A DNA stretch of 64,000 nucleotides from positions 74,657-138,656 of IMG/VR virus record IMGVR_UViG_3300017698_000036. The stretch is one strand, 5' to 3'. The DNA comes from a virus. The notes beneath the pieces are model-generated. The model worked only from the letters and a program-made list of their open reading frames with translations. It ran no database searches and was not told the origin of the DNA. Position 1 is the stretch's first letter; each line of letters begins with the position of its first letter. Of the stretch, positions 8,461-63,970 are shown one piece after another. A program made the translations under genes and the position numbers.

Positions 8461-9045
8461 ATGCAGGTACACTCTGTTCAAAGTTCAGTTGTAGAGGACT
8501 TGGAGATCAACGTACGACTGTATATACTCTACCTGATAACTCACTCGAATCGATTCATAATAGATCACCAGAAAGGTCATGTGGCTCCTTTTTTTAACCT
8601 TGTATATGATAATGTCAATAAGAGAAGTGTTAGAGAGAGTGTGTCAAAAAATATGATATTAAAGCTTGACGAAGCCCATGACTTTAATACTGGATATAAT
8701 GATATTGTTAATGATATTATGAAAAACTATCGTGAATATGAAAATGACTCTTATACCAGTCTTGATTATGAGTCCAAAATGGCCGGTATTTTTCATAAGT
8801 GTGGCACGTGTAAACATTGCCGACCTCATGATATCGTGCCAATGGCGGTGGAGTGTATGTTAAGACGTCAGTTTGATGGATCCATCGGCCAGCCACCACC
8901 AGATGTGTTTTTGTACGAGGCCTTTGGTGCACGGGGAACTTTAAGACCCCCCTACTGTGACTACGAGTTTTCAGACGATAGTGTTTTCAATAATATGTAT
9001 AAGATGTACAATGAAGACATAAAACCCAAGTTTCAATTGTTTTAA
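8461..9045 (+). CDS. Hypothetical protein ending in FQLF-stop
   Basis: 194 aa with CGTCKHC cluster; last codons caa ttg ttt taa. Confidence 0.65.
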   Translation: MQVHSVQSSVVEDLEINVRLYILYLITHSNRFIIDHQKGHVAPFFNLVYDNVNKRSVRESVSKNMILKLDEAHDFNTGYNDIVNDIMKNYREYENDSYTSLDYESKMAGIFHKCGTCKHCRPHDIVPMAVECMLRRQFDGSIGQPPPDVFLYEAFGARGTLRPPYCDYEFSDDSVFNNMYKMYNEDIKPKFQLF

Positions 9046-9059
9046 GGATGAGGTGTGAT

Positions 9060-9932
9060 ATGAATACCGTTATTAGTGTAGGTGAGACCAAACCATTTAC
9101 AGACTATCTCAATAGTAGCCACAATGGTTTGTACGATTTAATTCATATAGGGACCGAGGACTGTTTGTCGTATGGTTTTATAGATGTAGGTGGTATTGAG
9201 AAAAGTCATGAACGTTATGAGTCAGATTTTTTATCTACAGCAGGTGATTATTTGGATAAACTGTCTGGAGATAAGCTCACGTGTGTTGTAACATCTGAAA
9301 AACTGGCCGGTCTAGTTATGGTACTGTTGGACACTTTGAGGTCTAAGTTCAAAAATGTAACTGTGTATTTGGTCTTAAAGGAATCTCGTACGACAGATTA
9401 CGAGGAGATATTGATAGAAAGACTCAATAAGGGAGTCTTATCTAATGTCACAAAGGGAAAAAGACAGTTGGTCGATGAGTTGATGGTTATGTCCCTTGAT
9501 AGAATGATAGGTGGATCATACTCATTCAGTAAACAGATAGAACATTGTGCCAAAGACTTTCACACTATTAATGTATTCAGTCATCATAAACCAGAATACG
9601 TTAAGTCCAATATGATGAATTTAGATATGAAGTTGATTAAAAGGGCCAATGAATTGTCTAAGGTCTCGACAATATATGAGAATTCGTGTATAGGAGAAAA
9701 AAAGTTAGAAAATGCATTTTTTTCTCTTGACATGCCAACCAAGATTTGCTATTATAGTAGTATAGGGTGTGAATCGGAATTAATCGATGAGGTTAATGAG
9801 ATTGATAAACTGATGGACACTCTAGACAGTGATACATATTATGTTTTTGAGATATATAATCTTGGAAATAATACAAATATCTCTGTTATTTCTACTGATC
9901 AAGTTCTAGGAGATGATCCTAAGAAAGGTTAA
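9060..9932 (+). CDS. Hypothetical protein, possibly a highly degenerate tubulin/FtsZ-like protein
   Basis: GAGGTG RBS before ATG 9060. Size, N-terminal TVISVG strand and position next to PolA recall divergent phage tubulin-like proteins, but the GGGTG(S/T)G signature is absent. Confidence 0.3.
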   Translation: MNTVISVGETKPFTDYLNSSHNGLYDLIHIGTEDCLSYGFIDVGGIEKSHERYESDFLSTAGDYLDKLSGDKLTCVVTSEKLAGLVMVLLDTLRSKFKNVTVYLVLKESRTTDYEEILIERLNKGVLSNVTKGKRQLVDELMVMSLDRMIGGSYSFSKQIEHCAKDFHTINVFSHHKPEYVKSNMMNLDMKLIKRANELSKVSTIYENSCIGEKKLENAFFSLDMPTKICYYSSIGCESELIDEVNEIDKLMDTLDSDTYYVFEIYNLGNNTNISVISTDQVLGDDPKKG

Positions 9933-9937
9933 CTACA

Positions 9938-10177
9938 ATGTCTAAATTCAATCATAAATCCGTAACCGATAGAGACTTCGAACCCAGAAAAGGTGAAGAG
10001 TTTGACCCTATGAATGCGATCGATCTTGCGATGGAATCTTATGACGACCAGAGAGAGAGTGAAAACGCCTGTAGTGCCAAGAATCTCAACAGACATGCGA
10101 AAAAACTTCGTAACGTATTCACTGATGAGTATGGTATGATTTGTGATCCAACAGACGGAAAGTGGGTAGAATGTTAG
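9938..10177 (+). CDS. Small hypothetical protein
   Basis: 79 aa ORF; AAGG upstream; overlaps start of next gene. Confidence 0.55.
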   Translation: MSKFNHKSVTDRDFEPRKGEEFDPMNAIDLAMESYDDQRESENACSAKNLNRHAKKLRNVFTDEYGMICDPTDGKWVEC

Positions 10178-10584
10178 TAACAGCCAAACATATATTCGAT
10201 GAACCCAAGATCTATCCATGGGATGTATTGGATTGGGCCGAGGAAGGACAGGTCGAATATGAAGTTGACTTGTATCTCAGAAATACCGATATAACCCACC
10301 TACCTGATAACATGACGGTCAATGGTTATTTAAATCTCTACAGTACCAATATAACTCAACTACCTAAAGATCTACATGTTGGTGGCAACTTGTATCTCAA
10401 TGATACCAACATAACTCAACTACCTAAAGATCTACATGTTGGATATCATTTAGTTCTCTACGGTACCAATATGGCTCAATTACCTGAAGGTCTGTATGTT
10501 GGTGGTAATTTACATCTTGGGCACGATGACAATATTAAGATTCCTGATTCTGTGGTCATAAAAGGTACAATTTGGCGTACTTGA
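10171..10584 (+). CDS. LRR-like repeat protein, family copy 1
   Basis: MLVTAKHIFDEPKIYPWDVLDW N-terminus plus 20-aa repeats L-x-L-x2-TNIT-x-LP-x2-L-x-VGG; 60 bp near-perfect internal DNA repeat at about 10344-10443. Confidence 0.85.
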   Translation: MLVTAKHIFDEPKIYPWDVLDWAEEGQVEYEVDLYLRNTDITHLPDNMTVNGYLNLYSTNITQLPKDLHVGGNLYLNDTNITQLPKDLHVGYHLVLYGTNMAQLPEGLYVGGNLHLGHDDNIKIPDSVVIKGTIWRT

Positions 10585-10606
10585 AAAAATTAATTTAAAA
10601 TAATCC

Positions 10607-10635
10607 TTGACAATAAGAAAAATATATGGTATAAC
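10607..10635 (+). promoter_or_regulatory. sigma70-type early promoter
   Basis: TTGACA-17-TATAAC, preceded by aatcc. Confidence 0.85.
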
Positions 10636-13877: not shown

Positions 13878-14102
13878 ATGGAGTCTAGATGTCCCTACTG
13901 TAGAGAGATATATTGGAAGATATTTGTACAACGACCCTTTAAGGTTATTATAGATGGAGTACTTGAGACTGTGAATTTTGACAATGTACCTTATTGTCGA
14001 TTTTGTAAGAGAGATGTACTGGAGATTAAACATATCATAATGGTAGAGAACTATCTGGATAAGAAATATAACGGTAAGGCTATATGGAGGAGAGATGAGT
14101 AA
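13878..14102 (+). CDS. YgiT/MqsA-type zinc-ribbon protein without HTH
   Basis: CPYC...VNFDNVPYCRFC pattern. Confidence 0.45.
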   Translation: MESRCPYCREIYWKIFVQRPFKVIIDGVLETVNFDNVPYCRFCKRDVLEIKHIIMVENYLDKKYNGKAIWRRDE

Positions 14103-18717: not shown

Positions 18718-19305
18718 ATGACATGTATTATTGGTTTAGTAGATAAAGACGGAAAGACTTACTTGGCTGGTGACAGTATGGGATATGCCAATGTTTCATG
18801 GGGAACCCCGGTATCCAATCCCAAGGTTTTCAAGGTAAAAGATAAACCCATTGTGTTGGGATACACTACAAGTTTTAGGATGGGCCAATTGTTGGAATTT
18901 CATCCTGAGATATTTCCAGATCTACATAGAGACAAAACTGAATACACACGTGAATATATTATCAGGGAGGTAATTCCTAGATTACAGGGACTCTATAGAG
19001 AGTCTGGATGGGGTAAGAAAGATGGTGATGGGGCCGCAGATGGAGGAACTTTCCTAATTGGTGTCCCCGGAGCCGTTTATACCGTACAGGACAATTTTGC
19101 AGTACTGGAACATATCCATGGTTATGAGGCCTGTGGGTGTGGTTGTTACGCCGCCTGTGCCTCGGTAGCTACATCTTGTAAAAATGGTGTAGAGGATCCA
19201 AAAACGATCCTCAAGGCCGCCATGGAAGTTACCGTACAGTACTCTCCTGGGGTTCAACCTCCATTTCACTATGTAACAACAGATGGTGAGGCTGGAGAGT
19301 TGTAA
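18718..19305 (+). CDS. HslV/proteasome beta-like Ntn peptidase
   Basis: M-T-CIIG N-terminal Thr, LAGDS, NPKVF, GGTFL, YEACGCG (usually GSG). Confidence 0.65.
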   Translation: MTCIIGLVDKDGKTYLAGDSMGYANVSWGTPVSNPKVFKVKDKPIVLGYTTSFRMGQLLEFHPEIFPDLHRDKTEYTREYIIREVIPRLQGLYRESGWGKKDGDGAADGGTFLIGVPGAVYTVQDNFAVLEHIHGYEACGCGCYAACASVATSCKNGVEDPKTILKAAMEVTVQYSPGVQPPFHYVTTDGEAGEL

Positions 19306-19493
19306 TGGGGTTTATCAAATATTTACTAAAATCCATTTGGCGATGGTTTAAGCAGTTGGGTTTCATTATTATAATATTTCCGTTCTTTCCAATATTGTGG
19401 GTTTATCTAATGCTGGCCGACAAGAAGGAGGAGTATGACAACCATATTGCAAACGAGAAATTACACAAAAAAGATAAGTCTGGAGATTTGTGA
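19305..19493 (+). CDS. Small membrane protein
   Basis: LGFIIIIFPFFPILWVYLML hydrophobic segment; TAATG overlap with upstream gene. Confidence 0.5.
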   Translation: MGFIKYLLKSIWRWFKQLGFIIIIFPFFPILWVYLMLADKKEEYDNHIANEKLHKKDKSGDL

Positions 19494-19849
19494 TGATTAT
19501 CAGGTTGCGTGAGTATGACAAGAAGGGCTTTAGAATGTTTACCATTTTTGATACGGAGGGTATGGACTTGTATGTCTTCTTGGTTCAATTAAAGGCTCAC
19601 TTAACGTCCAATTTGGTTACTTGGAGCGATTCAGAAGATAAGTGTCGTGTGTCAAAGATAGATTTTGATTATTTTGATCAAATAGCCGAAGAGTATGGTA
19701 TGCGTGTTGATGAGCTAATTTGTGAGATAGAGGATATGGACTTTTGTGTATCTATCGACAACGTCGCACAGTTTGTTGTGATAGGTTGTTCAAGACCAAC
19801 GTACAATGATGGTAAGCGCTCGCTATTTTCAGAGGTGTATCATGAATAG
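19490..19849 (+). CDS. DG-SLFS family protein 1
   Basis: Ends NDGKRSLFSEVYHE; FDYFDQIAEEYGMRVDELICEI resembles a segment of the 20191 protein. Confidence 0.7.
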   Translation: MMIIRLREYDKKGFRMFTIFDTEGMDLYVFLVQLKAHLTSNLVTWSDSEDKCRVSKIDFDYFDQIAEEYGMRVDELICEIEDMDFCVSIDNVAQFVVIGCSRPTYNDGKRSLFSEVYHE

Positions 19850-20189
19850 TTGGAGAGATAGATGTTTTATGTTGTATTACGAAGAAGAGCTCGGCCGAAT
19901 GAACGCAGTAGTAAACATGACCAATTACAATGACTGGCCATTAACTGAGGATAAGTTAATTAGGGATTGTCGATGGGCTTGGGATATGTTACAGTATTAT
20001 AACGGGCCCGGTGTAAGATACCGTTCAGAGGCTCTAGATTATTTTAATTTAGAATTCAACTTCAACCTTTCAATTGAAGACCTGTTGGGTGATTCGTATT
20101 TTATAAAAGAACAAGATTCAGAGTTTTTGATTTATAAGATTGAACCCAGTAATGACGGTAAACACTCACTATTTTCAGAGGTGTATTGA
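19842..20189 (+). CDS. DG-SLFS family protein 2
   Basis: Start follows GAGGTG inside the previous gene's tail; ends NDGKHSLFSEVY. Confidence 0.7.
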   Translation: MNSWRDRCFMLYYEEELGRMNAVVNMTNYNDWPLTEDKLIRDCRWAWDMLQYYNGPGVRYRSEALDYFNLEFNFNLSIEDLLGDSYFIKEQDSEFLIYKIEPSNDGKHSLFSEVY

Positions 20190-20190
20190 G

Positions 20191-20562
20191 ATGAACTTAG
20201 ATAGGTATGGTATAGTGTTTAAAAGATACCAAGAGGAAACGCTCGAATGGACCTACTTCATATGTTCTAAGAGGGGTAGAGGTAGACGAAGATACTCTAA
20301 GCAAGGAGAGTGTTTGTGTGTTCTGAGAGAGATGATAAGAAATATTTGTAAACGAAATGTATTGGAGGAGTTATACATTCCCTTTGACTGTTTTGATGCA
20401 ATATGGGAAGAGTTTAATGAATATGAATTAAACGTTTCTGAGTTAATATGTGATGATATAGACATCAAACGTGACTGTTATGACGGTACTGGAATAACGT
20501 TTACGTATGGTGGATTCTTTATCCCCGATGATGGTAAACATTCACTATTCTCTAAGTTTTAA
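20191..20562 (+). CDS. DG-SLFS family protein 3
   Basis: Start follows GAGGTG inside the previous gene's tail; ends DDGKHSLFSKF. Confidence 0.7.
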   Translation: MNLDRYGIVFKRYQEETLEWTYFICSKRGRGRRRYSKQGECLCVLREMIRNICKRNVLEELYIPFDCFDAIWEEFNEYELNVSELICDDIDIKRDCYDGTGITFTYGGFFIPDDGKHSLFSKF

Positions 20563-21658: not shown

Positions 21659-22015
21659 ATGATTGTAACAACCGAACATATATTCGATGAAGTTAAGATT
21701 TACCCGTGGGATATATTGGATTGGGTTGAGGAGGGTCAAACTGAGTACGGTAATGATTTAAATCTCAGATATACCGATATAACACACTTACCCGACAATA
21801 TGAAAGTTGATGGTTATTTAGATCTCAGAGGTACCAACATAGCTCAATTACCCGACAATCTGCGAGTCGAGTATGGATTAAACCTTGGAGATACAAATAT
21901 AACTGACTTACCCGATGACCTGTATGTTGGTGGTAGTTTAACTCTCAGTAATACCAATATGGCTGACTTACCGGTACAGGATAGTGTGTTTGTTGGAATG
22001 GAGATATTCAGATGA
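21659..22015 (+). CDS. LRR-like repeat protein, family copy 2
   Basis: MIVTTEHIFDEVKIYPWDILDWVEEGQ plus TNI-x2-LPD-x-L-x-V repeats; ends with ATGA overlap. Confidence 0.85.
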   Translation: MIVTTEHIFDEVKIYPWDILDWVEEGQTEYGNDLNLRYTDITHLPDNMKVDGYLDLRGTNIAQLPDNLRVEYGLNLGDTNITDLPDDLYVGGSLTLSNTNMADLPVQDSVFVGMEIFR

Positions 22016-22686: not shown

Positions 22687-23061
22687 ATGGGTCGTAAGAG
22701 AAAAAACTTTAAATACAAACTCCTATTAACTCACGATATAGAGTCGGAGTGTTCGTACATAAAGACAGTTACGTCTAAATATTTTACTAAGTATGAAGTG
22801 GGCGGAGTTGAGTATCTTGTCAGTAAGAGATTTTATGGTTTAAAGGGGGAATATGACGACGAGAAGACCGTCGGATATAGTACTCTGACTGGAGACTCCG
22901 TTTATGTGTTTGTCGATGAATGGTACATGTACCTGGAGACCTATAACGACGATATGCATAAGATACTATCTGGACCTTGCAAAACATTCAACGATAAGGT
23001 AAAGAGGTTTATTCCGGTGGCCTTAAATAGAGCTGCGTTACTAAGGAAGTTTATAAAATGA
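22687..23061 (+). CDS. Hypothetical protein
   Basis: 124 aa; AGGAG RBS; ATGA overlap with next gene. Confidence 0.6.
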   Translation: MGRKRKNFKYKLLLTHDIESECSYIKTVTSKYFTKYEVGGVEYLVSKRFYGLKGEYDDEKTVGYSTLTGDSVYVFVDEWYMYLETYNDDMHKILSGPCKTFNDKVKRFIPVALNRAALLRKFIK

Positions 23062-23444
23062 AAACTGAAGCTCGTAAAACTACGGCCAATTACCTGGGTA
23101 AGTACGACATTAGAATATCCGGATATGCGATGGATATGTTTGATATACCTTATTCAGATTCGTCCAATTTTTACAAACTAAACCCATCAGATAGATTAGA
23201 GGTACTGTGTAAGGCGATCACCTATATATTGAGAGCCGGTAGCGAATATCGAGGTACACCAAGTTACTTAAAGGTAACATACTACGATTGTTATGACTGG
23301 CTTAATATGACTATAGCCAAGGTGTTAGCCAATATAGGTCCTAGTACTGATCTGTTGTGTGAGGACAATTACAATTTGGGTTATTTAAGATTCAGGCTTA
23401 AACCCGCAGATGATGGAAGGTTTTCTTTATTTTCTAAAAACTGA
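23058..23444 (+). CDS. DG-SLFS family protein 4
   Basis: Ends PADDGRFSLFSKN; YDCYDWL...DLLCED resembles family core. Confidence 0.7.
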   Translation: MKTEARKTTANYLGKYDIRISGYAMDMFDIPYSDSSNFYKLNPSDRLEVLCKAITYILRAGSEYRGTPSYLKVTYYDCYDWLNMTIAKVLANIGPSTDLLCEDNYNLGYLRFRLKPADDGRFSLFSKN

Positions 23445-23461: not shown

Positions 23462-23935
23462 TTGAGATTTATAAATTATGTTAAAAATAATAGTAAGTTG
23501 GAGTGGTTGGTCGATGACGTAGACAATCCAACTAGGATCATGTTTTGTTATCTAGGATCATATTCTAATCGATCCGGTACAGAAAAATGTCAGAAGTTCG
23601 TGGATAAGTATGGAGATAATAGGATCAAAAAGAAATTTCCCGTGTTTGAGGTAGATTTCGTATTTGATCACACTTGGTTATGGGAGTCATCTGCAGGTTG
23701 GGTATGTAAGGATGTTGACACCGATGAAGAGTTTAGGGTGTCTATTGTAGACCAGGACGGTTTAATGGATAGGGTAGAACTCGTAAGAACAATAGAGGGA
23801 AACGGTGATGTCGACGACAAGAAAGTGTATCGTATGAAGGGTTTTTATCGTAAGAAGTCAAGTTATGTATACTTTATTCCGTTCGTTGGAAGTATAAATG
23901 AAGTATACAAACCAAAGGCACATCAATTATTTTAA
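23462..23935 (+). CDS. Hypothetical protein ending in HQLF-stop
   Basis: GGAGG RBS, TTG start; last codons caa tta ttt taa. Confidence 0.65.
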   Translation: MRFINYVKNNSKLEWLVDDVDNPTRIMFCYLGSYSNRSGTEKCQKFVDKYGDNRIKKKFPVFEVDFVFDHTWLWESSAGWVCKDVDTDEEFRVSIVDQDGLMDRVELVRTIEGNGDVDDKKVYRMKGFYRKKSSYVYFIPFVGSINEVYKPKAHQLF

Positions 23936-27326: not shown

Positions 27327-27422
27327 ATGTCGTATCGATGTTGTAGTGAGTTTACAGATTGTGAGCTCAAAGTACATAATAAGTTAAAATTAGTTCCATT
27401 TCAAAGATTTCAACTATTTTAA
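27327..27422 (+). CDS. 31-aa micro-ORF ending in FQLF-stop (not in ORF track)
   Basis: AAGGAAG RBS; MSYRCCSEFTDCELKVHNKLKLVPFQRFQLF-stop. Confidence 0.55.
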   Translation: MSYRCCSEFTDCELKVHNKLKLVPFQRFQLF

Positions 27423-27430
27423 AATAATCC

Positions 27431-27459
27431 TTGACAAGTCAATAAAAATCTGGTACAAT
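27431..27459 (+). promoter_or_regulatory. sigma70-type early promoter
   Basis: TTGACA-17-TACAAT. Confidence 0.8.
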
Positions 27460-27505: not shown

Positions 27506-28006
27506 ATGTTGGGATTTTTAGGTGGTGTATTTGGTTACTTAATATTACTGTATATTGTGATCCATATAAGAGTAGCATATACGTCAGAAGTGGATGAGAT
27601 AAATGAGCTTTTTAATCAAAGACGTGAAATTATTGAATATGCATATTTACTCAATCAAGAACCCGTTGTCGAAATGAAAGATCATGAAAGATTTCGTAAG
27701 TTTAGATTTCATAAAAATATAGACCTTCAATCTAGAGACAAAAGGTTTAAATTGGATATTGTCCATGAGGCCACAATGTTGAGTGGTAAATATCGTGACT
27801 ATAAGAGTGAACGAATTCGTGAAACCACAAAGGCCTTATTTAAACTGTATACAACCGCATATTTTAATCATAGAGAGGTTGTGAAAATATATGATGAGTT
27901 TTTAAAACAAAGAGTCAATAATGGTCATCAAACGCTAAAAGACTATATGGTATTCCACAATTCAGATTATCCAGTTAGGGATTTCGATAAATTTCAACTG
28001 TTTTAA
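27506..28006 (+). CDS. N-terminally membrane-anchored protein ending in FQLF-stop
   Basis: MLGFLGGVFGYLILLYIVIHI hydrophobic start; last codons caa ctg ttt taa. Confidence 0.7.
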   Translation: MLGFLGGVFGYLILLYIVIHIRVAYTSEVDEINELFNQRREIIEYAYLLNQEPVVEMKDHERFRKFRFHKNIDLQSRDKRFKLDIVHEATMLSGKYRDYKSERIRETTKALFKLYTTAYFNHREVVKIYDEFLKQRVNNGHQTLKDYMVFHNSDYPVRDFDKFQLF

Positions 28007-28016
28007 GGTATTAATC

Positions 28017-28322
28017 ATGATTGTTAAAAAGAAGACCGAGTATGTTAAATCCCAAAAGGGTAGGTATTTCGAACCACCAAAGCGCCACCGCCAAATCACG
28101 TATGATAGGTTTACGGATCTTGGTTTAAGTTGTTATGATTGTGCGTATTTTAATGGAGTAGGCGAAGAGTGCACATGTTGGATTCGTCAGTGTAAACCAG
28201 GAGGCCTCCCCCAAGGTATGATTGCATCCATATTAGCTTGTTGTAATCTACCCAAAGCACTTTGTATACAGTTTAGATTAATGGCAACTGTTAAAATATA
28301 TAAAGATTTTCAACTATTTTAA
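28017..28322 (+). CDS. Cys-rich protein ending in FQLF-stop
   Basis: CYDC...CTC...C...CC...C; last codons caa cta ttt taa. Confidence 0.65.
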   Translation: MIVKKKTEYVKSQKGRYFEPPKRHRQITYDRFTDLGLSCYDCAYFNGVGEECTCWIRQCKPGGLPQGMIASILACCNLPKALCIQFRLMATVKIYKDFQLF

Positions 28323-35898: not shown

Positions 35899-36690
35899 GT
35901 GGAGAAATTTATGTTCAAATCTATGTTCAAAGACTATATCAGAAAAACCATTATCGAATTCTTAAACGGTGGCCCCCTAGAAGAAGAGCAAACGATGACC
36001 AAGGAGGAACTGGTAAAACACATTCAGGAGCAGGTAGAGGGAAAGGAGGAAGAGGAAGGAGAGTCTAAAAGTTTAATCAGTCAACTACAGATCGAAGAGG
36101 CTTTGAAGATTTTAGAACTTCAAGTACCTATTTATATTAACAGAGTGATCGATGAAAAGCTTTTCGACTCAGTTATTACAAGACTTCATGATATTCTATT
36201 TTTACGTAAACGTATTAAAGAGTTAAAGGAGAAGTATCCAGACGAAAAGATGCTCTCCCACGTTGATTTAAATGCACCAGTAAAGATTGTCATTGCGACT
36301 CCAGGTGGTAATGTACGTGAAGGAATGGCCATCTATGACGCTATGCAACTTCTCAAGAAGGATGGTTGTATTGTTGAGACGATAGGATCAGGACAGGTAT
36401 TTTCTATGGGAACTCTTCTGTTGGCGGGAGGTTCTAAAGGTCATCGTTATATGACCAAAAACTCAATGTTAATGATACACAATATTAGTGGAGGTACCAT
36501 TGGAACTCTACCAGATATGGAAACCAGACTGAAAGAGATGAAACGTCTTAAGGAACAGTTTTTCAGTGTATTCAAGACGGATACAGATTTTTCAGAGGAC
36601 CATCTTAGGGATTTGTTAAATGAGAAGACGGATCAGTATTTGACCCCTTCTGAGTGTCTTAGATACGGCGTTGTTGACAAGGTTATCTAA
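35899..36690 (+). CDS. ClpP-like serine protease with N-terminal extension
   Basis: IATPGGNV-x2-GMAIYD, VFSMG (Ser), LMIHN (His), KTDQYL (Asp), YGVVDKVI; about 100 aa extra N-terminus; start may be 35911 or 35923. Confidence 0.88.
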   Translation: MEKFMFKSMFKDYIRKTIIEFLNGGPLEEEQTMTKEELVKHIQEQVEGKEEEEGESKSLISQLQIEEALKILELQVPIYINRVIDEKLFDSVITRLHDILFLRKRIKELKEKYPDEKMLSHVDLNAPVKIVIATPGGNVREGMAIYDAMQLLKKDGCIVETIGSGQVFSMGTLLLAGGSKGHRYMTKNSMLMIHNISGGTIGTLPDMETRLKEMKRLKEQFFSVFKTDTDFSEDHLRDLLNEKTDQYLTPSECLRYGVVDKVI

Positions 36691-45275: not shown

Positions 45276-45304
45276 TTGACAAACGGGTCAATATCGGGTA
45301 TAAT
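45276..45304 (+). promoter_or_regulatory. sigma70-type early promoter
   Basis: TTGACA-17-TATAAT; the ORF-track start at 45276 is this promoter, not a real start. Confidence 0.85.
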
Positions 45305-48666: not shown

Positions 48667-49092
48667 ATGGATATAAAGAGTAGAAAATTAAATAACAAAA
48701 ATAGGAATTATTTTAAGGTATATTTCATAGTAAATAAAAGATACAACCTGGTATGGCATGTTCGTCATGTAGAACGTTATGTGTCTGGATTTCGCAAGGG
48801 TCAAATTAAACTGAGAAAAGACATGATAAGTCTCACTAGAAACCAAGCTCAGGGGAAATTAAACCGTCTCTATTGGCGTAGTGATGATGAGCAGACATAT
48901 GAAGTAGGAATCAATCAAAAAGAGTTAGAGACTTACTACGGAGGTAAAACAGATTGTGATATAAAACTCAACCCTGATTCAATAAACAGTTACAAGGTCA
49001 CAGTATACCTTTCAGATTTAGAGATAGTAGAGCACTCTGTCGACGTTACACAGTTGATTGAAAAAGATTCTGAAATGTTTTCCTTATTTTAA
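48667..49092 (+). CDS. Hypothetical protein ending in FSLF-stop
   Basis: Last codons tcc tta ttt taa. Confidence 0.6.
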   Translation: MDIKSRKLNNKNRNYFKVYFIVNKRYNLVWHVRHVERYVSGFRKGQIKLRKDMISLTRNQAQGKLNRLYWRSDDEQTYEVGINQKELETYYGGKTDCDIKLNPDSINSYKVTVYLSDLEIVEHSVDVTQLIEKDSEMFSLF

Positions 49093-50262: not shown

Positions 50263-50463
50263 ATGGAAGGAACATATGATGGAAAAGTAACCTATCGTGA
50301 CAAGGATGATATTTCTCTCTTTCTTCGGCATTGGGAGGGAGTTGATACGGTAAGTTGGACGGCCGACGGCAAGGTTAGAATTGTGGTAGATTCATCAATG
50401 ACTTCTACCGATAAGGCCCTGTGGCAAAAACGTCAATATTTTGCAAATAATCAGTTGTTTTAG
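50263..50463 (+). CDS. Small protein ending in NQLF-stop
   Basis: AGGAG RBS; last codons cag ttg ttt tag. Confidence 0.6.
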   Translation: MEGTYDGKVTYRDKDDISLFLRHWEGVDTVSWTADGKVRIVVDSSMTSTDKALWQKRQYFANNQLF

Positions 50464-50572: not shown

Positions 50573-50734
50573 ATGTCCAAGACTTACAGAAAACAAATTG
50601 GTAACAAGAAAATCAAAAGACAAGATAATAAAAAAGGTAGAAGACATAATGTGAAACAGAAACTTCACGATCTTGTCAACAGTGGAGAATGTACCAACTG
50701 TGATTTTGAAATTCCAGAAACTTGGGAAGGGTAA
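50573..50734 (+). CDS. 53-aa basic protein (not in ORF track)
   Basis: MSKTYRKQIGNKKIKRQDNKKGRRHNVKQKL...WEG-stop. Confidence 0.5.
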   Translation: MSKTYRKQIGNKKIKRQDNKKGRRHNVKQKLHDLVNSGECTNCDFEIPETWEG

Positions 50735-50739
50735 CTAAA

Positions 50740-51003
50740 ATGACCAAAGTTAAAACAGGACCTAATATTTTCTCTCAAATGGAATATGGTTTGGACTCTC
50801 CATCTGCTTTAAAAAGAAAGATTGACACATTGGCAGGTACCTTGGTCGAGAAAATGAACGAGGAGTTGGATACTGATAAGTTCAAAGATATGAACTCCGA
50901 CATGTTGCGACTTGTTAAAGAGGAGTTGGAGAAGGATATCAAAAAGGCTATTGATAGTGCTTTTAGTGAGTACATGAAAACTAAAAGTCATTCATTGTTT
51001 TAA
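50740..51003 (+). CDS. Small protein ending in HSLF-stop
   Basis: Last codons tca ttg ttt taa. Confidence 0.6.
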   Translation: MTKVKTGPNIFSQMEYGLDSPSALKRKIDTLAGTLVEKMNEELDTDKFKDMNSDMLRLVKEELEKDIKKAIDSAFSEYMKTKSHSLF

Positions 51004-51218: not shown

Positions 51219-51482
51219 TTGTTGGTCCCGCCTGTCTTTATTACAAATCTTAAAAATATCAAAAATGTGGATGTTTGGAAACGTGAACTCGTAGAACAGT
51301 TCAAGTATTTGTTAATGACTGAAGATGGTACCATACTCGTTACTGAATTGTTGAAAGAGTTGAGTTTAACGGGTGTGGATGTGGAAGAGATAGTTGAAAT
51401 GATGTACAGTAAGGTTAACGATGGTAGGTACTCTCTGTTCTCCGAAGAGTATGTTGTAGAACTAGGAGAGGAAAGGTTTTAG
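51219..51482 (+). CDS. DG-SLFS motif protein 6
   Basis: NDGRYSLFSEEY followed by 9 more residues; TTG start uncertain. Confidence 0.5.
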   Translation: MLVPPVFITNLKNIKNVDVWKRELVEQFKYLLMTEDGTILVTELLKELSLTGVDVEEIVEMMYSKVNDGRYSLFSEEYVVELGEERF

Positions 51483-51857: not shown

Positions 51858-52154
51858 ATGTTAGTAACGACCAAACATATATTCGATGATTGTATACCTA
51901 GAGTCTATCCGTGGGACGTATTTGATTGGATTGAAGAGGGTCAAACTGAGTTCTATGGTAACTTAAGTTTTCACGAAAGTAGTATAACCCACCTACCCAA
52001 CAATATGAAGGTTGAAGGTTGGTTAGATCTCACTAATACCAATATAACTAAATTACCCGACAATCTGTACGTTGGCGGTAATTTATATATCGAAAGAACC
52101 AACATAACTAATTTACCCAACGATCTAAGACTTGTTGGGGGGGTAATAAGATGA
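51858..52154 (+). CDS. LRR-like repeat protein, family copy 9
   Basis: MLVTTKHIFDDCIPRVYPWDVFDWIEEGQ; ATGA overlap. Confidence 0.85.
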   Translation: MLVTTKHIFDDCIPRVYPWDVFDWIEEGQTEFYGNLSFHESSITHLPNNMKVEGWLDLTNTNITKLPDNLYVGGNLYIERTNITNLPNDLRLVGGVIR

Positions 52155-52492
52155 AAAAGATTGAAATCAAGGTAGGTCCATATCGTTACGGGCCCTTTGA
52201 GGTTTATTATAATAACATATCTAAATCATGCCGAGTCATTCCGATCGTTGCTAATAGTGCTCCGGCTGCAGACAGTGTCAGTTGTTTTTGTGATATGTTA
52301 CATAATGAATATTCTAAAACAAATCCTCTGGTGGCCACCCAGTCATGGGCCGCGGCATGGTGTGAGTTGGAAATGATAGAAATTCGCGATGATATACATG
52401 TAGGTTACCATCCAGAGCGGGAAGAGTATACATTTTACCCATTAGACCCAAAGAATGATGGAAGATTTTCTCTATTTTCAGAGTTTTATTAA
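52151..52492 (+). CDS. DG-SLFS family protein 7
   Basis: Ends PKNDGRFSLFSEFY. Confidence 0.65.
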   Translation: MKKIEIKVGPYRYGPFEVYYNNISKSCRVIPIVANSAPAADSVSCFCDMLHNEYSKTNPLVATQSWAAAWCELEMIEIRDDIHVGYHPEREEYTFYPLDPKNDGRFSLFSEFY

Positions 52493-55269: not shown

Positions 55270-55299
55270 GGTGGGAGCTTGTCTCCCACCATTTTTTTT
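55270..55299 (+). terminator. Intrinsic terminator
   Basis: GGTGGGAG-CTTGT-CTCCCACC followed by A and a T run. Confidence 0.88.
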
Positions 55300-55323
55300 G
55301 TCTATAAGAAGGATGATTTCGTC

Positions 55324-55674
55324 ATGTTAGTAACAACCAAACATATATTCGACGAACCCAAAATCTATCCATGGGACGTACTGTATTGGGTTGAAGAGGG
55401 TCAAACTGAGTACGATGAAGACCTGGATCTCGGTGACACCAACATAACTCACTTACCTGATAATATGACGGTCTATGGTTATTTAAATCTCTACAGTACC
55501 AATATAACTAAATTACCCGACAATCTACGAGTTGAGTATAGTTTGTTTCTTGGACATACCAATATAACTCAATTGTCCGACGATCTATATGTTGGTAGTA
55601 GTTTATTTCTCAGAGATACTAATATAGGCCAGGTTCCTGATACTGTAACCGTAAAAGGTACAGTCCATTGGTGA
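55324..55674 (+). CDS. LRR-like repeat protein, family copy 10
   Basis: MLVTTKHIFDEPKIYPWDVLYWVEEGQ; ends VTVKGTVHW, like copy 1 (VVIKGTIW). Confidence 0.85.
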   Translation: MLVTTKHIFDEPKIYPWDVLYWVEEGQTEYDEDLDLGDTNITHLPDNMTVYGYLNLYSTNITKLPDNLRVEYSLFLGHTNITQLSDDLYVGSSLFLRDTNIGQVPDTVTVKGTVHW

Positions 55675-57680: not shown

Positions 57681-57754
57681 GAAGAGAATATGGAAGTACA
57701 ACGAATGGAACGGTTGTTATAGTCAGTTACAATGCTGGTTAATTGGAGGAATGT

Positions 57755-59389
57755 ATGGATAAAGGTATTAATGTATTGAGTTTATTTGACGGGATATCTG
57801 GTGCACAAGTGGCGCTACAGAAGTTAGGTATTAAGGTTAACAATTATTACGCATCAGAGATTGATAAACACACGATTTCTGTTACAATGAAGAATTTTCC
57901 TGACACCATTCAGTTGGGTGATGTAACTAAGTGGAGAGAGTGGAATCTACCAAAGATTGATTTATTAATCGGGGGTTCTCCATGTTTCGTCGCAGGTACT
58001 AAGGTTTTAACGGAGGGTGGTTTAAAGAACATCGAAGACGTGAAGGTTGGAGATATGGTGTTAACCCACGAGAATAGATATCGTAAGGTACTTAGGGTTG
58101 GTGGTAAAATGTCTGAGACTGTTAAACTGGTTTCTAGTGGTACTTTGATAACTGAAACCACGAAGGAGCATCCCTATTATGTAAGAGAGCTGTGTGGAAA
58201 CGGTTATGGGGGTGAGGGAGGTTTAAGTAGACCGTCGTGGGTAAAGGTGTGTGATTTAATACCAGATGTACACTATGTTGGTGTTCCTATCAACATGGAG
58301 GCGTGTGAAAACGGCCACACCTCAGAGAGTATATACACACTGGCCTCGAATATTCGAGGTCATCAAACAAATATTCCTTATGAGTTTGTTGATTTAAATA
58401 ATGAACTATTACAGTCATTTTTAGATGGTTACAATTCAAATGATGGTGTAATAGATAACGACTTTATGTCGGTACATGCCAAGGATGAGTCAGACGCCCT
58501 TACGTTAGGACTTATAGTCAATAAACTTTACAATGTCCCAGTTAGTTATAATAGTCATCAATGTATAGGTGGAAAGAAGAGCTATAGTGTGATGTATAGA
58601 AGACAGAATTATAAAGATTTTGTAAGTGATGATATAGTGTGGCAACCGATGAGGGAGGTTTACGAGACTGGAGACGAGAAGTGGGTCTACAATTTAGAGG
58701 TTGAAGAGGATAATAGTTACACGGCCAACAACGCAATTGTGCACAACTGTCAAGGTTTCAGTATGGCCGGTAAGAAGTTGAATTTTCAGGACCCTAGAAG
58801 TAAGTTGTTCTTTGAGTATGTTGATATTCTCAAACACTTTAAACCAGAGCATTTCTTCTTGGAAAATGTGAAGATGAAACAGTCTTTCCAGGCCGTCATT
58901 ACTAGCTTCTTGGGGGTTGAACCTGTAGAGATTAATAGTGGACTTTTATCAGCTCAAAGTAGGCCAAGGCTGTATTGGTGTGATTGGGATGTGATGGTAC
59001 CGAAACAGAGGGGTGTTGTGTTGGATGATATACTGGATCCTAATGCGAATCATAACCGTAAGACATTCAACCCTATTCAACCTACCCCTAAGCCGTCACG
59101 TAATGGGTTGATATGTAGACGTACGGATTTGCCTACCAATTATGATTATGGTAAGAGGGTCTACTTATCTAAGGGTAAGAGTCCCACGTTATGTGCAGCC
59201 TCTGCGGGGTCTGTTAAGATATCTGACGATGATTATCAAACCTATAGAAATCTGTCTGAACTTGAAGGAGAGAGATTACAAACTTATCCGGACAATTACA
59301 CAGATACGATTACTAGATCTCAAAGGTTTAAGGCTTTAGGAAACTCATTCACTGTTGACGTAATCGCACATATTCTCTCACAAATGTAA
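57755..59389 (+). CDS. C5 cytosine DNA methyltransferase with intein
   Basis: Motif I LSLFDGISG, motif IV GGSP^CQGFS (intein-split), VI FFLENV, VIII AQSRPRLYW, X LGNSF. Confidence 0.92.
   Translation: MDKGINVLSLFDGISGAQVALQKLGIKVNNYYASEIDKHTISVTMKNFPDTIQLGDVTKWREWNLPKIDLLIGGSPCFVAGTKVLTEGGLKNIEDVKVGDMVLTHENRYRKVLRVGGKMSETVKLVSSGTLITETTKEHPYYVRELCGNGYGGEGGLSRPSWVKVCDLIPDVHYVGVPINMEACENGHTSESIYTLASNIRGHQTNIPYEFVDLNNELLQSFLDGYNSNDGVIDNDFMSVHAKDESDALTLGLIVNKLYNVPVSYNSHQCIGGKKSYSVMYRRQNYKDFVSDDIVWQPMREVYETGDEKWVYNLEVEEDNSYTANNAIVHNCQGFSMAGKKLNFQDPRSKLFFEYVDILKHFKPEHFFLENVKMKQSFQAVITSFLGVEPVEINSGLLSAQSRPRLYWCDWDVMVPKQRGVVLDDILDPNANHNRKTFNPIQPTPKPSRNGLICRRTDLPTNYDYGKRVYLSKGKSPTLCAASAGSVKISDDDYQTYRNLSELEGERLQTYPDNYTDTITRSQRFKALGNSFTVDVIAHILSQM
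57983..58747 (+). mobile_element. Intein (255 aa) at the catalytic Pro-Cys of the MTase, with endonuclease remnant
   Basis: Starts CFVAGTKVLTEGGLKNIEDVKVGDMV, TTKEHPYY (block B), FLDGYNSNDG (LAGLIDADG-like block E), ends VYNLEVEEDNSYTANNAIVHN before Cys. Confidence 0.92.
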
Positions 59390-59481: not shown

Positions 59482-60240
59482 ATGAGCTGGTTCTATAGTG
59501 GTGGAAGACGTTACAATAGTGATGACAACAATCTATCACCGACTCTAATAGAGTTACGTGATAAGATAAGAGATAGGTTTAAGCATTTAAAAGATGCGTT
59601 AAACGATAAAAAGTATGTATATTGGAAGTCGGGTGATCCTAAACTGCCCTTACATCCAGTGTCAGATATATATATAAGTGATAGGATAGAGAGTGGCAGG
59701 TCTTACTATGCTATATTGGTGAAATTCAAAAACAATAAAGTATACACAAATACAGTATATGGTAGATACAACAAGTACAGTGATACCATCGTGGATGTCG
59801 ATTTCGTTAATGATTTTGAAATAAGGGATAAACAAGTACGTAAAAAGGCCATTCGAAAACCTAAACTGGATATGTCTATGAGTGAGTATCACATAAATCA
59901 ACTGAAAATGTACGATGAAAGCCCTCACCATGTTATATGTTATTTTGATATTAACTGGTTTGAGGATGATGGTAATGGTGGTTTGAAGATGACTAGTGCG
60001 CTACAAAATAGTCTGGATCAAATGAGTCTGGACCGAATATTCTACAGATATAGTGTAAGTGGTTTAAAATTTAGGGAGAACAGTAAGGGTGATGTGGTAG
60101 GGATATCTGGGTTAGGTCCTATGGGTGGAACTAGAAGTGTCTCTAAGTTGAGATTCGATTTAAACTTCAAAATCTATGTCGTCAAGAATGTTAACTTGTC
60201 TATGGAAGAAAATCCAAAGGATAAGTTTCAGTTGTTTTAA
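59482..60240 (+). CDS. Hypothetical protein ending in FQLF-stop
   Basis: GAGG RBS; last codons cag ttg ttt taa. Confidence 0.7.
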   Translation: MSWFYSGGRRYNSDDNNLSPTLIELRDKIRDRFKHLKDALNDKKYVYWKSGDPKLPLHPVSDIYISDRIESGRSYYAILVKFKNNKVYTNTVYGRYNKYSDTIVDVDFVNDFEIRDKQVRKKAIRKPKLDMSMSEYHINQLKMYDESPHHVICYFDINWFEDDGNGGLKMTSALQNSLDQMSLDRIFYRYSVSGLKFRENSKGDVVGISGLGPMGGTRSVSKLRFDLNFKIYVVKNVNLSMEENPKDKFQLF

Positions 60241-60249: not shown

Positions 60250-60903
60250 ATGGAAGGTGTGAAGATGGAAGTTAAATACGGAAATGGTAGTACTGAATAT
60301 GGTCCTGGAATAGAAATAAACCTTACTGGTGACGAACTGGCGAAGGCCTTAACAGCATATCTAGTCGCTCATGATGTACATATTGACGGACCTCGTACAG
60401 TACGTATTAATGGTGACTTATGTGATGACGTTCGGATATATGTAGACCCATCAGGTAATGTATATACTGGTGGTGAGAAGTATTCCGGTCGAGGTCCTAC
60501 TGGTAACTGGGAGGAGTTCTTCACACACAAAGAGTTGAACGATATCGGCGGTGTGGTTAGGTTATTACGAAAAGAAAAAAACTGGACCCATGAAGATTTA
60601 GGTCATGAAGTCGACTTATCCAGTTATATGGTACAATGTTTAGAAGAAAATGACTTCAAACCTAATACAGAGTTAAGACAAAAACTCGGTAAAGTGTTCA
60701 ATCTGTCACCAGAGGTATTTAAGGTACCAACTAAAAATGAAGTTAAGTCATGTCGTCTTTGTGGTGAGGACGAATATGCGATTGAGGGTTACGTTGAACA
60801 TAAATGTGAAAAGGTTAATATAGAAGACTCTGAGTATATGCGTATGACTACTGAGGATTGGAATTCTTGGAATGATGGTGAAGCGGGGGAACTATTAAAA
60901 TGA
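60250..60903 (+). CDS. Multi-domain protein with XRE-type HTH
   Basis: IGGVVRLLRKEKNWTHEDLGHEVDLSSYMVQCLEEND-x-KP; CRLC tail. Confidence 0.65.
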   Translation: MEGVKMEVKYGNGSTEYGPGIEINLTGDELAKALTAYLVAHDVHIDGPRTVRINGDLCDDVRIYVDPSGNVYTGGEKYSGRGPTGNWEEFFTHKELNDIGGVVRLLRKEKNWTHEDLGHEVDLSSYMVQCLEENDFKPNTELRQKLGKVFNLSPEVFKVPTKNEVKSCRLCGEDEYAIEGYVEHKCEKVNIEDSEYMRMTTEDWNSWNDGEAGELLK

Positions 60904-61916: not shown

Positions 61917-61945
61917 TTGACAGGAGTGTAAAGGTGTGGTATAAT
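61917..61945 (+). promoter_or_regulatory. sigma70-type early promoter
   Basis: TTGACA-17-TATAAT with TGG before the -10. Confidence 0.88.
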
Positions 61946-61976: not shown

Positions 61977-62855
61977 ATGAATTTAAGAACTGAGGTAAGA
62001 GTGACTATTGAGAATTACGTTAAGAGGTTCGTTGTTATTAACGATGAGGGAAACTCTAACGGCTCAACTGAGAATAAGGTATATATCTCATTTTGTGGAA
62101 AATCATTCTATCCTACCAGTGAAAAACAAGAGTCGGAATGTGTCGAGATTTTAAAGTTTATCAAGGATGTGTATGATAGTAACGCTTTCGGTAAATTCTC
62201 TCAGCGTGTTAGTGACCTCTATGATAGTGTAATTATATTGACTCCAGGTACGTCATCTATATTAAATTCCAGATATACAGAAGGTAAACGTGTAGATAGT
62301 CTGGGTATGTTGGTTGCGGGTATACGTACAGTACTTAGAAGAAGGATTACAGAACCAACCGGATATAAGAAGGGTGACATGATCGAGGGTGAGATGGTTC
62401 TAAAGGGTATCAAGGAGTACGTTGATAGTAGCCGTTGGAATAATCGTTGGGATATGGACATGCCAGTACTCGACGTTGTTCCCAAGATGGTTTTAAATGG
62501 TACGATAGGTGGTATACCATTCAAGACCATCATGCTTAGAAATGTCGACTCGTGGGTATATCGGGTAAAGTGGTTTCTTAGAGATTTTATAGAGGAGGCC
62601 TGTGATGGTCATTATGTCTGTGATTCTTTCGTAGAAGAGTCAGATCAGTTGAATCTCTTTATGGATGTACTCAAACAACGTAATAATAAACTCTCCTATA
62701 GCTTCATACCTAAAAACACGGAGGTGATAGTGTTGGGTGAGACATACAATGATATCTATGGTTATTCATTAGATTTAGATATAAAGTATGTAGAGAAACA
62801 GTCAGAGATGGACATGAAACGTGTGTATCATAACAACCATTCAAACTTCTTTTAG
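61977..62855 (+). CDS. Hypothetical protein (ends HSNFF-stop)
   Basis: GGAGG RBS; first gene after promoter. Confidence 0.65.
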   Translation: MNLRTEVRVTIENYVKRFVVINDEGNSNGSTENKVYISFCGKSFYPTSEKQESECVEILKFIKDVYDSNAFGKFSQRVSDLYDSVIILTPGTSSILNSRYTEGKRVDSLGMLVAGIRTVLRRRITEPTGYKKGDMIEGEMVLKGIKEYVDSSRWNNRWDMDMPVLDVVPKMVLNGTIGGIPFKTIMLRNVDSWVYRVKWFLRDFIEEACDGHYVCDSFVEESDQLNLFMDVLKQRNNKLSYSFIPKNTEVIVLGETYNDIYGYSLDLDIKYVEKQSEMDMKRVYHNNHSNFF

Positions 62856-62864
62856 GATATTATA

Positions 62865-63302
62865 ATGAGTAACTATATCGATATATTGAAATCAAGAGTT
62901 GCAGAGATATCACAAGATGCTAGTACTCATATGTATAATGCATTCAACAACCTATTTATAGAACAGCTTGAAAGTGCTGTAATAGATGTAATGTTGAAGT
63001 CGGGTATTGAGGGTGGACTGCATAAGGTAAAAGAGGTTGTCGAAGAGTTGATGGTGGAGGTTATACAAGATGTTGAAGACTTACAGGATGTTATCAACAA
63101 TAGTGATGAACAACTAAGAGAGATAGACGAAAATATAAAACGTCTAAGACATGAAAAGTATAAACTTCTAAACAGCACCCAAGGTATTCAGGATAGATTT
63201 ACTAGAGTTAAGGTGTTGGCGGAGTTTGTACGAAGGGTTTATAGGGATATGGTAGAAAACAATAGTCCTACATTAAATAAACTGAATAAACAGCTGTTCT
63301 GA
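62865..63302 (+). CDS. Coiled-coil protein ending in KQLF-stop
   Basis: Last codons cag ctg ttc tga. Confidence 0.7.
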   Translation: MSNYIDILKSRVAEISQDASTHMYNAFNNLFIEQLESAVIDVMLKSGIEGGLHKVKEVVEELMVEVIQDVEDLQDVINNSDEQLREIDENIKRLRHEKYKLLNSTQGIQDRFTRVKVLAEFVRRVYRDMVENNSPTLNKLNKQLF

Positions 63303-63310
63303 GGTGATTT

Positions 63311-63643
63311 ATGGAGTATGACTTTTTAAAAGACTTTAATGATGTTGTAGATATTTTAAACGACATCTATGTAAACTCGACGTATGTGGCCTACATAACC
63401 GTTAATGGTATGAGACACGAGTTAACAGGGATAAATACTCCTAGATTTCATGAGTGGAATTCCAAGTACACTCTAGAGTATGGTAAAAACTCACATATGG
63501 ATGTACCAAAAGAGTCCAACGTGTTTGAGTACGTTACATTCTTTGAGTTAAAAGACGTCAATGAAGAGTTGGAAGATAGAATAGGACTGATACGTAGTAC
63601 AAGATTGAAACAGAAAATATCAGAAGACCTTCAACTATTTTAG
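63311..63643 (+). CDS. Hypothetical protein ending in LQLF-stop
   Basis: Last codons caa cta ttt tag. Confidence 0.7.
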   Translation: MEYDFLKDFNDVVDILNDIYVNSTYVAYITVNGMRHELTGINTPRFHEWNSKYTLEYGKNSHMDVPKESNVFEYVTFFELKDVNEELEDRIGLIRSTRLKQKISEDLQLF

Positions 63644-63652
63644 GATATTAGT

Positions 63653-63970
63653 ATGGATATGTGTGAAAAGCTCTCTAAATGCCTTGATCTACCACTGTAT
63701 GACGATGGTGCGGTAGATATTATGCTCATTATAAATGACTGTCTTTACTATATAGTAGATTTTATCAATGAGAGAACCATGGTTAGGGTTGAGTACGTTA
63801 AATCCCCATGGCGTATGGACAGGGGGAGGACAGAAACTATCATATTGGATAATGATTCTGACTTGTTTAAACATTTTACCTTTATAAGGTTGGTTAGTAT
63901 TGACAAAGAGGTAGAGACAGAGTATAATAAAATAAAGAAGAGTGAGTTTTTTAAACAACAGTTATTTTAA
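63653..63970 (+). CDS. Hypothetical protein ending in QQLF-stop
   Basis: Last codons cag tta ttt taa. Confidence 0.7.
   Translation: MDMCEKLSKCLDLPLYDDGAVDIMLIINDCLYYIVDFINERTMVRVEYVKSPWRMDRGRTETIILDNDSDLFKHFTFIRLVSIDKEVETEYNKIKKSEFFKQQLF

Follow-up and report, generated by a model that had tools for sequence, protein, structure and literature searches.

The question raised by this locus is why thirteen proteins of a single phage, which otherwise look nothing like each other, should all end in the same few residues. The stretch analysed here (the window) is 64,000 nt long and comprises positions 74,657–138,656, the final 64 kb, of IMGVR_UViG_3300017698_000036, a contig of 138,656 bp from an uncultured IMG/VR phage that is estimated to be ~70% complete; coordinates are those of the window unless marked as contig. 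A first-pass annotation of this DNA had reported ten open reading frames (ORFs) ending in Gln-Leu-Phe (QLF) directly before the stop codon and two ending in Ser-Leu-Phe (SLF). We verified all ten QLF stops (ending at 9045, 23935, 27422, 28006, 28322, 50463, 60240, 63302, 63643 and 63970) and both SLF stops (49092 and 51003), each at the close of a + strand ORF that is the only long one in its region, as well as the size range of the carriers (31–252 aa) and the two triplets of adjacent tagged genes (27327–28322, just before dnaE at 28335, and 62865–63970). A thirteenth carrier lies in the contig upstream of the window, which brings the tagged share to 13 among 143 genes (~9% of the proteins, about one in eleven). 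The carriers are the following.

8461..9045, + strand: 194 aa, Cys-rich in its C-terminal half, ends KPKFQLF; no Pfam or PHROG match, no homologue in the relatives introduced below
23462..23935, + strand: 157 aa, ends KPKAHQLF, last gene before thyX; no Pfam or PHROG match, no homologue in the relatives
27327..27422, + strand: mini-ORF of 31 aa, ends FQRFQLF; AAGGA ribosome-binding site (RBS) 13 nt upstream, and a consensus promoter begins 9 nt past the stop
27506..28006, + strand: 166 aa, probable membrane anchor (hydrophobic segment at the N-terminus), ends FDKFQLF
28017..28322, + strand: 101 aa, Cys-rich, ends YKDFQLF, dnaE directly downstream
48667..49092, + strand: 141 aa, ends SEMFSLF; TTGACA hexamer 8 nt past the stop
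50263..50463, + strand: 66 aa, ends FANNQLF; an identical sand-metagenome contig spans 49532–50563
50722..51003, + strand: at most 93 aa (start uncertain), ends KTKSHSLF
59482..60240, + strand: 252 aa, ends PKDKFQLF; only itself found among 5.8 billion proteins, and no usable Atlas neighbour
62865..63302, + strand: 145 aa, coiled-coil-like, ends NKLNKQLF (CAG CTG TTC TGA); an identical contig spans 62788–63548
63311..63643, + strand: 110 aa, ends SEDLQLF
63653..63970, + strand: 105 aa, ends FFKQQLF; the consensus promoter 63900–63928 lies within its 3' end
contig 42176–42805, upstream of the window: 209 aa, ends FSLF

Such a recurrence is far above chance. From composition, 0.013 QLF C-termini would be expected among the 143 genes, against ten observed (in addition to the three SLF ends), and in 2000 random draws of C-terminal tripeptides the maximum recurrence of any tripeptide was four. 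The word is moreover confined to where proteins end: 10 of the 14 QLF tripeptides of the whole proteome are C-terminal, and beyond the called genes the DNA word for QLF-stop turns up just twice in frames of the + strand, with two more copies on the − strand. In agreement with the first-pass annotation, the ten QLF tails use both Gln codons (CAA six times, CAG four), four Leu codons (TTG three times, TTA twice, CTA three times, CTG twice), both Phe codons (TTT nine times, TTC once) and all three stops (TAA seven times, TAG twice, TGA once), and the DNA past the tagged stops varies, being either an RBS and the next gene or a promoter. Since the choice of synonymous codons varies and the sequence beyond the stop is not conserved, the tail is kept by selection at the level of the peptide rather than as a DNA motif. 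The sole hint to the contrary is a weak one, namely that the Leu codons of all 13 tails are purine-ended, as against 77% of Leu codons genome-wide (p ~0.03). A frameshift or termination signal in TTT-TAA was considered and rejected, as no slippery heptamer is present and the downstream contexts are variable.

Common descent could have produced the same picture. Kinship was judged on sequence similarity. BLASTP comparison of all against all at E<0.01 gave no link among the QLF and SLF proteins, and with the tails removed no similarity among them appeared even at E<5, where only the three tandem genes of the SLFS class (below) showed weak similarity. Pfam gave no credible match for the 12 carriers of the window or for the six SLFS proteins scanned, and PHROG none for the ten QLF proteins. 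The carriers are diverse in kind, comprising Cys-rich proteins, a protein with a hydrophobic N-terminal anchor, a coiled-coil-like protein and, in the thirteenth, a fragment resembling residues 48–205 of the phage's own large terminase (TerL) (BLASTP). As far as sequence tells, the carriers are thus unrelated and do not form one paralog family. The tail is very unlikely to be without a common function, whether as the remnant of a hidden common ancestor, as a recombining 3' gene cassette or as a signal that the ends of genes need in DNA or in translation. The purine-ended Leu codons, and an RBS encoded in part by the extension of the SLFS variant (below), would speak for that explanation; the lack of similarity outside the tail, the four Leu codons, both Gln codons and three stops set in unrelated downstream contexts, the terminal position of 10 of the 14 QLF tripeptides together with the near absence of the word from other frames, and the clearly different origin of the TerL fragment all speak against it. 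What emerges is a C-terminal word that is maintained on many unrelated, fast-evolving accessory proteins, to which it was independently attached.

The surroundings of the thirteenth carrier deserve a separate remark. Within contig 42176–44329, three short ORFs stand beside a 271-aa gene: two are copies, ~105–110 aa long, of about residues 20–90 of the capsid protein, one of them ending DDGKHSLFSKTYKE, and the third, 209 aa long and ending FSLF, copies the N-terminal part of the large terminase. The 271-aa protein encoded between them ends DMDLFGLFD.

How far does the conserved word extend? When the 13 tails are aligned from the end, position 0 is Phe and position −1 is Leu in 13/13, position −2 is Gln in 10 and Ser in 3, position −3 is Phe in 7/13 and His in 2/13, and position −4 is Lys in four, Asp in two, Asn in two and once each Thr, Ala, Arg, Met and Ser. 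The extended motif can therefore be written [KRD]-[FH]-[QS]-L-F-COOH, its usual form being Lys/Asp-Phe-Gln-Leu-Phe, and farther upstream Pro, Lys and Asp are frequent, in the manner of a flexible linker. Additionally, seven further proteins carry the related motif [ND]DG[KR]xSLFS, located 2–12 residues from the C-terminus. The ORFs of this class for which we give positions are these.

19490..20562, + strand: tandem array of three ORFs, each ending [ND]DGK[HR]SLFS plus 2–5 residues; likely starts of the following genes at 19842 and 20191
23058..23444, + strand: 128-aa ORF ending DDGRFSLFSKN
51219..51482, + strand: 87-aa ORF with NDGRYSLFSEEY 12 residues from its end
52151..52492, + strand: 113-aa ORF ending NDGRFSLFSEFY, with an ATGA overlap with the preceding leucine-rich-repeat (LRR)-like gene; a near-consensus promoter (TTGACA ... 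TATATT, 11/12) begins 8 nt past its stop

One SLFS carrier resembles residues 29–89 of the phage's own major capsid protein (MCP) (BLASTP). Given that the core K-H-S-L-F is common to the SLFS motif and to the terminal tail KSHSLF (50722–51003), the two classes are probably related, as judged by this shared core. In the tandem array the codons that follow SLFS read TCAGAGGTGTAT, a stretch containing the RBS of the next, overlapping gene: GAGGTG, coding for E-V after SLFS, is that ribosome-binding site, and part of the extension is consequently a constraint at the level of the DNA. A comparable case concerns a different ending. The proteasome-like peptidase considered below (19285–19305) and an unrelated 217-aa helix-turn-helix-like protein (60877–60903) both end DGEAGEL(LK), with synonymous differences, and in both genes these codons hold a GGAG- or GGGGGA-type RBS that serves the gene abutting downstream. 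A constraint on the DNA rather than a tag may thus lie behind this common ending.

We then have to consider how widely the tail is distributed. The relatives compared were a complete genome of 184 kb (G001), three partial relatives and five shorter loci, with 511 genes in total; those matched by MCP are 49–51% identical in that protein, those matched by TerL ~42% identical in TerL, and G001 is 42% identical in DnaE. QLF and SLF endings are absent from all 511 genes, and LF occurs once as an ending. The commonest C-terminal tripeptide of the relatives occurs four times, on small proteins of 63–74 aa that look like a family; in G001, four small proteins of this size (three of them adjacent; C1:54626–55253 and 62044–62235) end KVS, and their similar sizes suggest one small paralog family and not a tag on unrelated proteins. 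No ortholog of the tagged proteins was found in the relatives, where 60 of the 151 phage genes overall have a match, and two carriers match there only the full-length TerL or MCP that they mimic. Loci with DnaE homologues (L001–L004; P0002, P0005) belong to distant phages with 51–54% GC and are without tags, and two unrelated cultured phages likewise had no shared C-terminal tripeptide. Searches of viral contigs with DnaE, MCP and TerL for closer relatives reached only 42–51% identity, and the cultured-phage collection gave nothing closer than 35% MCP identity. Among the relatives and unrelated controls examined, this genome is therefore alone in its tag frequency, and the tag belongs to the variable accessory gene set of one sampled lineage. 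Searches of the literature for shared C-terminal motifs or degrons of phage proteins gave no description of a genome-wide tag of this sort, which agrees with the remark in the first-pass annotation that it knew of no described phage system of this kind.

In the contig, the part upstream of the window holds the structural genes and the window the remaining genes. Twelve of the 13 carriers lie in this replication half, where consensus promoters also occur. Six exact TTGACA-N15-19-TAYAAT promoters, all on the + strand, were found against 0.26 expected.

27431–27459, + strand: exact promoter
40999–41026, + strand: exact promoter
43607–43634, + strand: exact promoter
45276–45304, + strand: exact promoter
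61917–61945, + strand: exact promoter
63900–63928, + strand: exact promoter

The Shine–Dalgarno sites of the window region are also strong and, considering both features, the region is probably transcribed by a host polymerase of the sigma-70 type.

Since selection at the level of the peptide, unrelated carriers and uniqueness to this genome come together, an address read by one receptor is the natural reading, and we infer that the tail is an address label for one partner. To this extent the genome-wide address proposed by the first-pass annotation is supported; none of the four candidate readers examined (a sliding clamp, the proteasome-like peptidase, the LRR-like proteins and an AAA+ protease) emerged as its receptor. 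As to the nature of the partner, the reading that we think most likely, though at less than even odds, is a C-terminal degradation signal for an AAA+ protease system. A host unfoldase of the ClpX, ClpA or ClpC type would recognise the exposed hydrophobic C-terminus with its free carboxylate and would pass the tagged protein to ClpP, of which the phage supplies its own copy; host-takeover and decoy-like proteins would then be cleared on a shared schedule, and the near-terminal SLFS motif would represent a related variant that is weaker or differently read. The phage enzyme in question is the following.

35899..36690, + strand: ClpP, candidate proteolytic partner, 263 aa (Pfam PF00574, E 1.7e-34)

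Its Ser-His-Asp motifs are present by eye, and it carries an acidic N-terminal extension of ~75 residues. Immediately 5' of it (35088–35837) lies a gene for a 249-aa protein that is extremely acidic and of low complexity (Glu/Asp runs with Gly) and matches no family; for a 457-aa protein encoded between ClpP and GroEL no phage homologue was found.

A degradation signal is the best fit because it accommodates the diversity of the carriers, their position in the replication half with its promoters of the sigma-70 type, the strictly terminal position of the word and a published precedent. Phe stands directly before the stop, and thus bears the free carboxylate, in the 13 tailed proteins, though not in the seven SLFS proteins; a degron would also place no demands on the nature of its carrier, which could be anchored in a membrane or be a fragment mimicking TerL or MCP. 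The ssrA-type 'LAA' is a C-terminal degron of ClpXP. In Streptococcus mutans, the C-terminal tripeptides LPF, ELQ, AAL, ETV, VTL and VTK alone are degradation signals for ClpX/ClpC/ClpE–ClpP, with hydrophobic residues favoured and Leu-Pro-Phe among the tripeptides sufficient for ClpX–ClpP (PMC10782952). Several observations weigh against this reading. Pfam scans covering the larger proteins of the window gave no unfoldase (no search aimed at unfoldases was made), and Pfam and PHROG scans of the neighbours for a peptide-binding or unfoldase domain gave nothing useful. The complete relative G001 carries ClpP and no tag, so that phage ClpP alone cannot account for the tag. The invariant Gln/Ser at −2 and the preference for Phe/His at −3 suggest a specific pocket, and published tripeptide degrons are much looser than this tail. 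Finally, the seven SLFS motifs lie away from the free end, and the tag is known from a single genome. We regard as distinctly improbable the more far-reaching scheme in which the phage runs label and reader alike, the five-residue tail plugging ~20 unrelated proteins into one phage-controlled proteolytic machine (an HslV-like peptidase, or ClpP with a hijacked unfoldase), the truncated terminase and capsid copies possibly being decoys for host immune sensors, and some carriers being bait that drags host proteins to destruction.

The HslV-like peptidase is also a candidate reader in a simpler sense.

18718..19305, + strand: N-terminal-Thr peptidase of the proteasome/BPH/HslV type, candidate reader, 195 aa; head of the SLFS array

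The tail might dock on this enzyme and so deliver the carrier, or a host protein bound to it, or else open or activate the peptidase. The protein begins Met-Thr-Cys-Ile-Ile-Gly; its ESM Atlas score is 0.97, with a TM of 0.90 to viral proteasome-like clusters, and residues D19 and K36 do not vary among 3641 homologues, with T2 almost as constant. These homologues include genes annotated 'peptidase HslV family' in T5-like Aeromonas phages and in Vibrio phages, and the literature already records proteasome homologues in phages, their function unknown (PMC8665760). An AlphaFold2 (AF2) model (pLDDT 95) has the BPH of Thiobacillus (5ovs, E 2e-11) as its best Foldseek match, followed by HslV, and with a BPH/HslV fold and catalytic Thr, Asp and Lys the modelled peptidase looks active. 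Further, BLASTP found no homologue of it in G001, which is also untagged, and its gene stands first in the SLFS array. A partner ATPase for it is not evident. Docking of a tail is made conceivable by the free HslU octapeptide EDLSRFIL, which activates HslV and whose aromatic residue is decisive (PMC4106860), and HbYX and GQYL tails dock on 20S proteasomes, as the entries consulted indicate (PDB 5lzp, with the GQYL tail of Bpa on the 20S proteasome; ProEnd database, PMC11475706).

The register of the aromatic residues differs, however: in HslU the aromatic is at −2 (Phe441 in RFIL) and in HbYX the penultimate residue is Tyr, whereas here −2 is Gln/Ser, −1 is Leu, and the aromatics occupy −3 and 0. 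The known docking tails sit on ring-shaped activators and not on small monomers; the present carriers, at 31–252 aa, are no ring activators or unfoldases, given that the 12 of the window belong to no Pfam or PHROG family, and hence have no ATPase domain, and that the thirteenth is a TerL-like fragment. The closest homologue of the peptidase (67% identity) is encoded on an untagged contig, the nearest loci with an HslV-like homologue (L043–L045) have no tags, and cultured phages with this peptidase family (Aeromonas 2L372X and Vibrio VPMCC14) have no shared C-terminal tripeptide. A complex prediction with three peptidase copies, one LRR-like protein and the 31-aa QLF protein (score 0.07, mark 0.32) speaks neither for nor against binding. 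On balance, docking on the peptidase seems to us unlikely.

The closest precedent named by the first-pass annotation was a different one, the sliding clamp, and here the comparison was not supported: the defining Gln is missing, no clamp gene was found, and six replication proteins are untagged. Under this proposal the tail, as a minimal motif for binding the clamp, would tether phage proteins to the beta sliding clamp of the host or compete there with host proteins. The beta-clamp consensus is Q-L-x-L-F, and it often sits C-terminally on unrelated proteins by convergence, e.g. on transposases (PMC4549789); in phage T4, gp43, gp55 and gp33 provide a precedent of three unrelated proteins sharing one hydrophobic–acidic C-terminal clamp-binding tail (PMC2988020). 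The L-F of the tail matches positions 4–5 of the consensus in 13/13 cases. Ser, the commonest residue at position 3 of the clamp consensus, fits that position in some of the tails. Moreover, neither the contig nor G001 gave a match to the clamp families PF00712, PF02768 and PF02916; with a DnaE-type polymerase present and no phage clamp gene, the host clamp is probably in play. Nor did the Pfam scans, which covered the larger proteins of the window, reveal a clamp loader. Against this, position 1 of the motif (−4 of the tail) is never Gln (0/13), being K, D, N, R, T, A, M or S, and position 2 is Phe/His and not Leu. The residues preceding the tail are basic, those of T4 acidic. The tag is absent from DnaE and from the PolA-like, flap exonuclease, DnaB, gp32-like and RecA/UvsX-like proteins, Q-x-x-L-F was not seen in the expected beta-binding stretch of DnaE, and the carriers include a membrane-anchored protein and fragments mimicking TerL and MCP. 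We consider clamp binding improbable. Two other kinds of tail were considered and dropped: mimicry of the SSB tail, as the preceding residues are basic and not acidic, and a Y-x-F ligand of PDZ/DegS type, as position −2 is never Tyr and the carriers are apparently cytoplasmic.

Another hub of the phage could be the reader, for example a family of ten LRR-like proteins, or the tail might be a localisation or packaging signal directing its carriers to the membrane, the capsid interior or a replication compartment. The ten LRR-like members (96–179 aa) are encoded as follows.

10171–10584: LRR-like family
21659–22377: LRR-like family
43684–44630: LRR-like family
45327–46186: LRR-like family
49151–49441: LRR-like family
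51858–52154: LRR-like family
55279–55674: LRR-like family

They combine a conserved N-terminal module (MLVTTKHIFDE..YPWDV) with variable 20-residue repeats (TNITxLPDNLxVxGxLxL), a build that would suit a reader; a model has a pLDDT of 90, and its weak Foldseek matches are mostly to LRR domains (IpaH, SspH1, Leptospira). LRR-like and tagged genes alternate in promoter-bounded units, one pair (51858–52154/52151–52492) overlapping by ATGA, and by BLASTP neither set has a homologue in the relatives. For packaging tags, the C-terminal cargo peptides of encapsulins are a precedent. The contigs with outside LRR-like homologues (L046 and L047), on the other hand, have no such tags, the tagged genes belong to units with promoters of the sigma-70 type in the replication half rather than to the structural region, and the invariant Gln/Ser is unexpected for a simple membrane-binding tail; taking both sides together, we think a hub or localisation signal of this sort unlikely. 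As an observation apart, L047 holds seven LRR-like paralogs, all with KLLWEI-like tails. Identical low-depth fragments of the present phage occur in three DNA runs of one sand-metagenome study, and the differences shown there fall in the LRR-like paralogs and none in the tails; no RNA run is listed as containing the phage, and the best-matching run may be the source sample itself.

For completeness, the genome that carries the tags has a GC content of 38% and, over the whole contig, 143 of its 151 called genes on the + strand. Its MCP is of the T4 gp23 type, with cultured relatives that are distant, the nearest being Microcystis phage Mel-JY01 (35% identity), followed by Rhodothermus RM378 and Flavobacterium phages. 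No tRNA or tmRNA gene was detected that might have pointed to the host or to a machinery for adding tags. Pfam matches identify these further genes of the window (single coordinates are given as recorded).

6859–8157: PolA-like protein
10847: gp32-like SSB
11672: RecA/UvsX-like protein
12879: 5'–3' exonuclease
14095: DnaB with intein
16181: ribonucleotide reductase large subunit
23954: ThyX
28335–31850: DnaE
33562: GMP reductase-like protein
38420: GroEL
52576: VWA/DUF2201 protein
54134: MoxR-type ATPase
57743: C5 methyltransferase with intein

Hint/intein domains split both the DnaB-like helicase (14095–15936) and the C5 cytosine methyltransferase (57743–59389). The phage has a DnaE-type polymerase as well as a PolA-like protein (regions 28335–31850 and 5520–8157), and its DnaE is 40–44% identical to those of a large clade of marine phages of ~180 kb.

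Short terminal tags that send many bacterial proteins to one reader are familiar from the ssrA tag, from sorting signals and from the cargo peptides of encapsulins. A virus that puts one and the same C-terminal word on roughly a tenth of its proteins, in contrast, is a case of which we found no description in the literature. If the tail is a degron, large phages would time the lifetime of their takeover proteins by one shared signal, and a portable five-residue tag for controlled degradation would be at hand; if it is a docking label, its reader would be a hub of the infection, and if carriers act as bait, the phage would have a natural counterpart of a targeted degrader. The statistical case is clean (13 exact tails, 0.013 QLF ends expected and no paralogy) and suited to bench work.

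Finally, considering known systems, the finding is of a familiar kind, a C-terminal linear motif or degron, with an unusually clean statistical signal. Like the clamp tails (Q-L-x-L-F, and those of T4 gp43, gp55 and gp33), the present tail is short, C-terminal and borne by unrelated proteins of one genome, and with the beta-clamp motif it shares the final L-F; clamp tails have a hub as their reader, and they differ from it in their Gln at position 1, in having no Phe/His at position 2, in lacking a basic lead-in and in being carried by replication or transcription proteins. With the HslU, HbYX and GQYL tails it has in common a free C-terminus and hydrophobic and aromatic residues that follow a basic or polar one, and, as for HslU/HslV, a peptidase of the proteasome family is encoded beside the tagged genes; the aromatic register is nevertheless another one, and the carriers are small and diverse proteins, known here from sequence, instead of hexameric ATPases. 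The degrons of ssrA and of S. mutans are matched in that 3–5 residues at the extreme C-terminus, partly hydrophobic and in principle transferable, sit on unrelated carriers, and AAA+ degron systems in that a ClpP gene is present in the phage. Unlike known degrons, which are diverse within one organism, a single fixed word with an invariant polar residue at −2 is repeated here over ~9% of a phage proteome.

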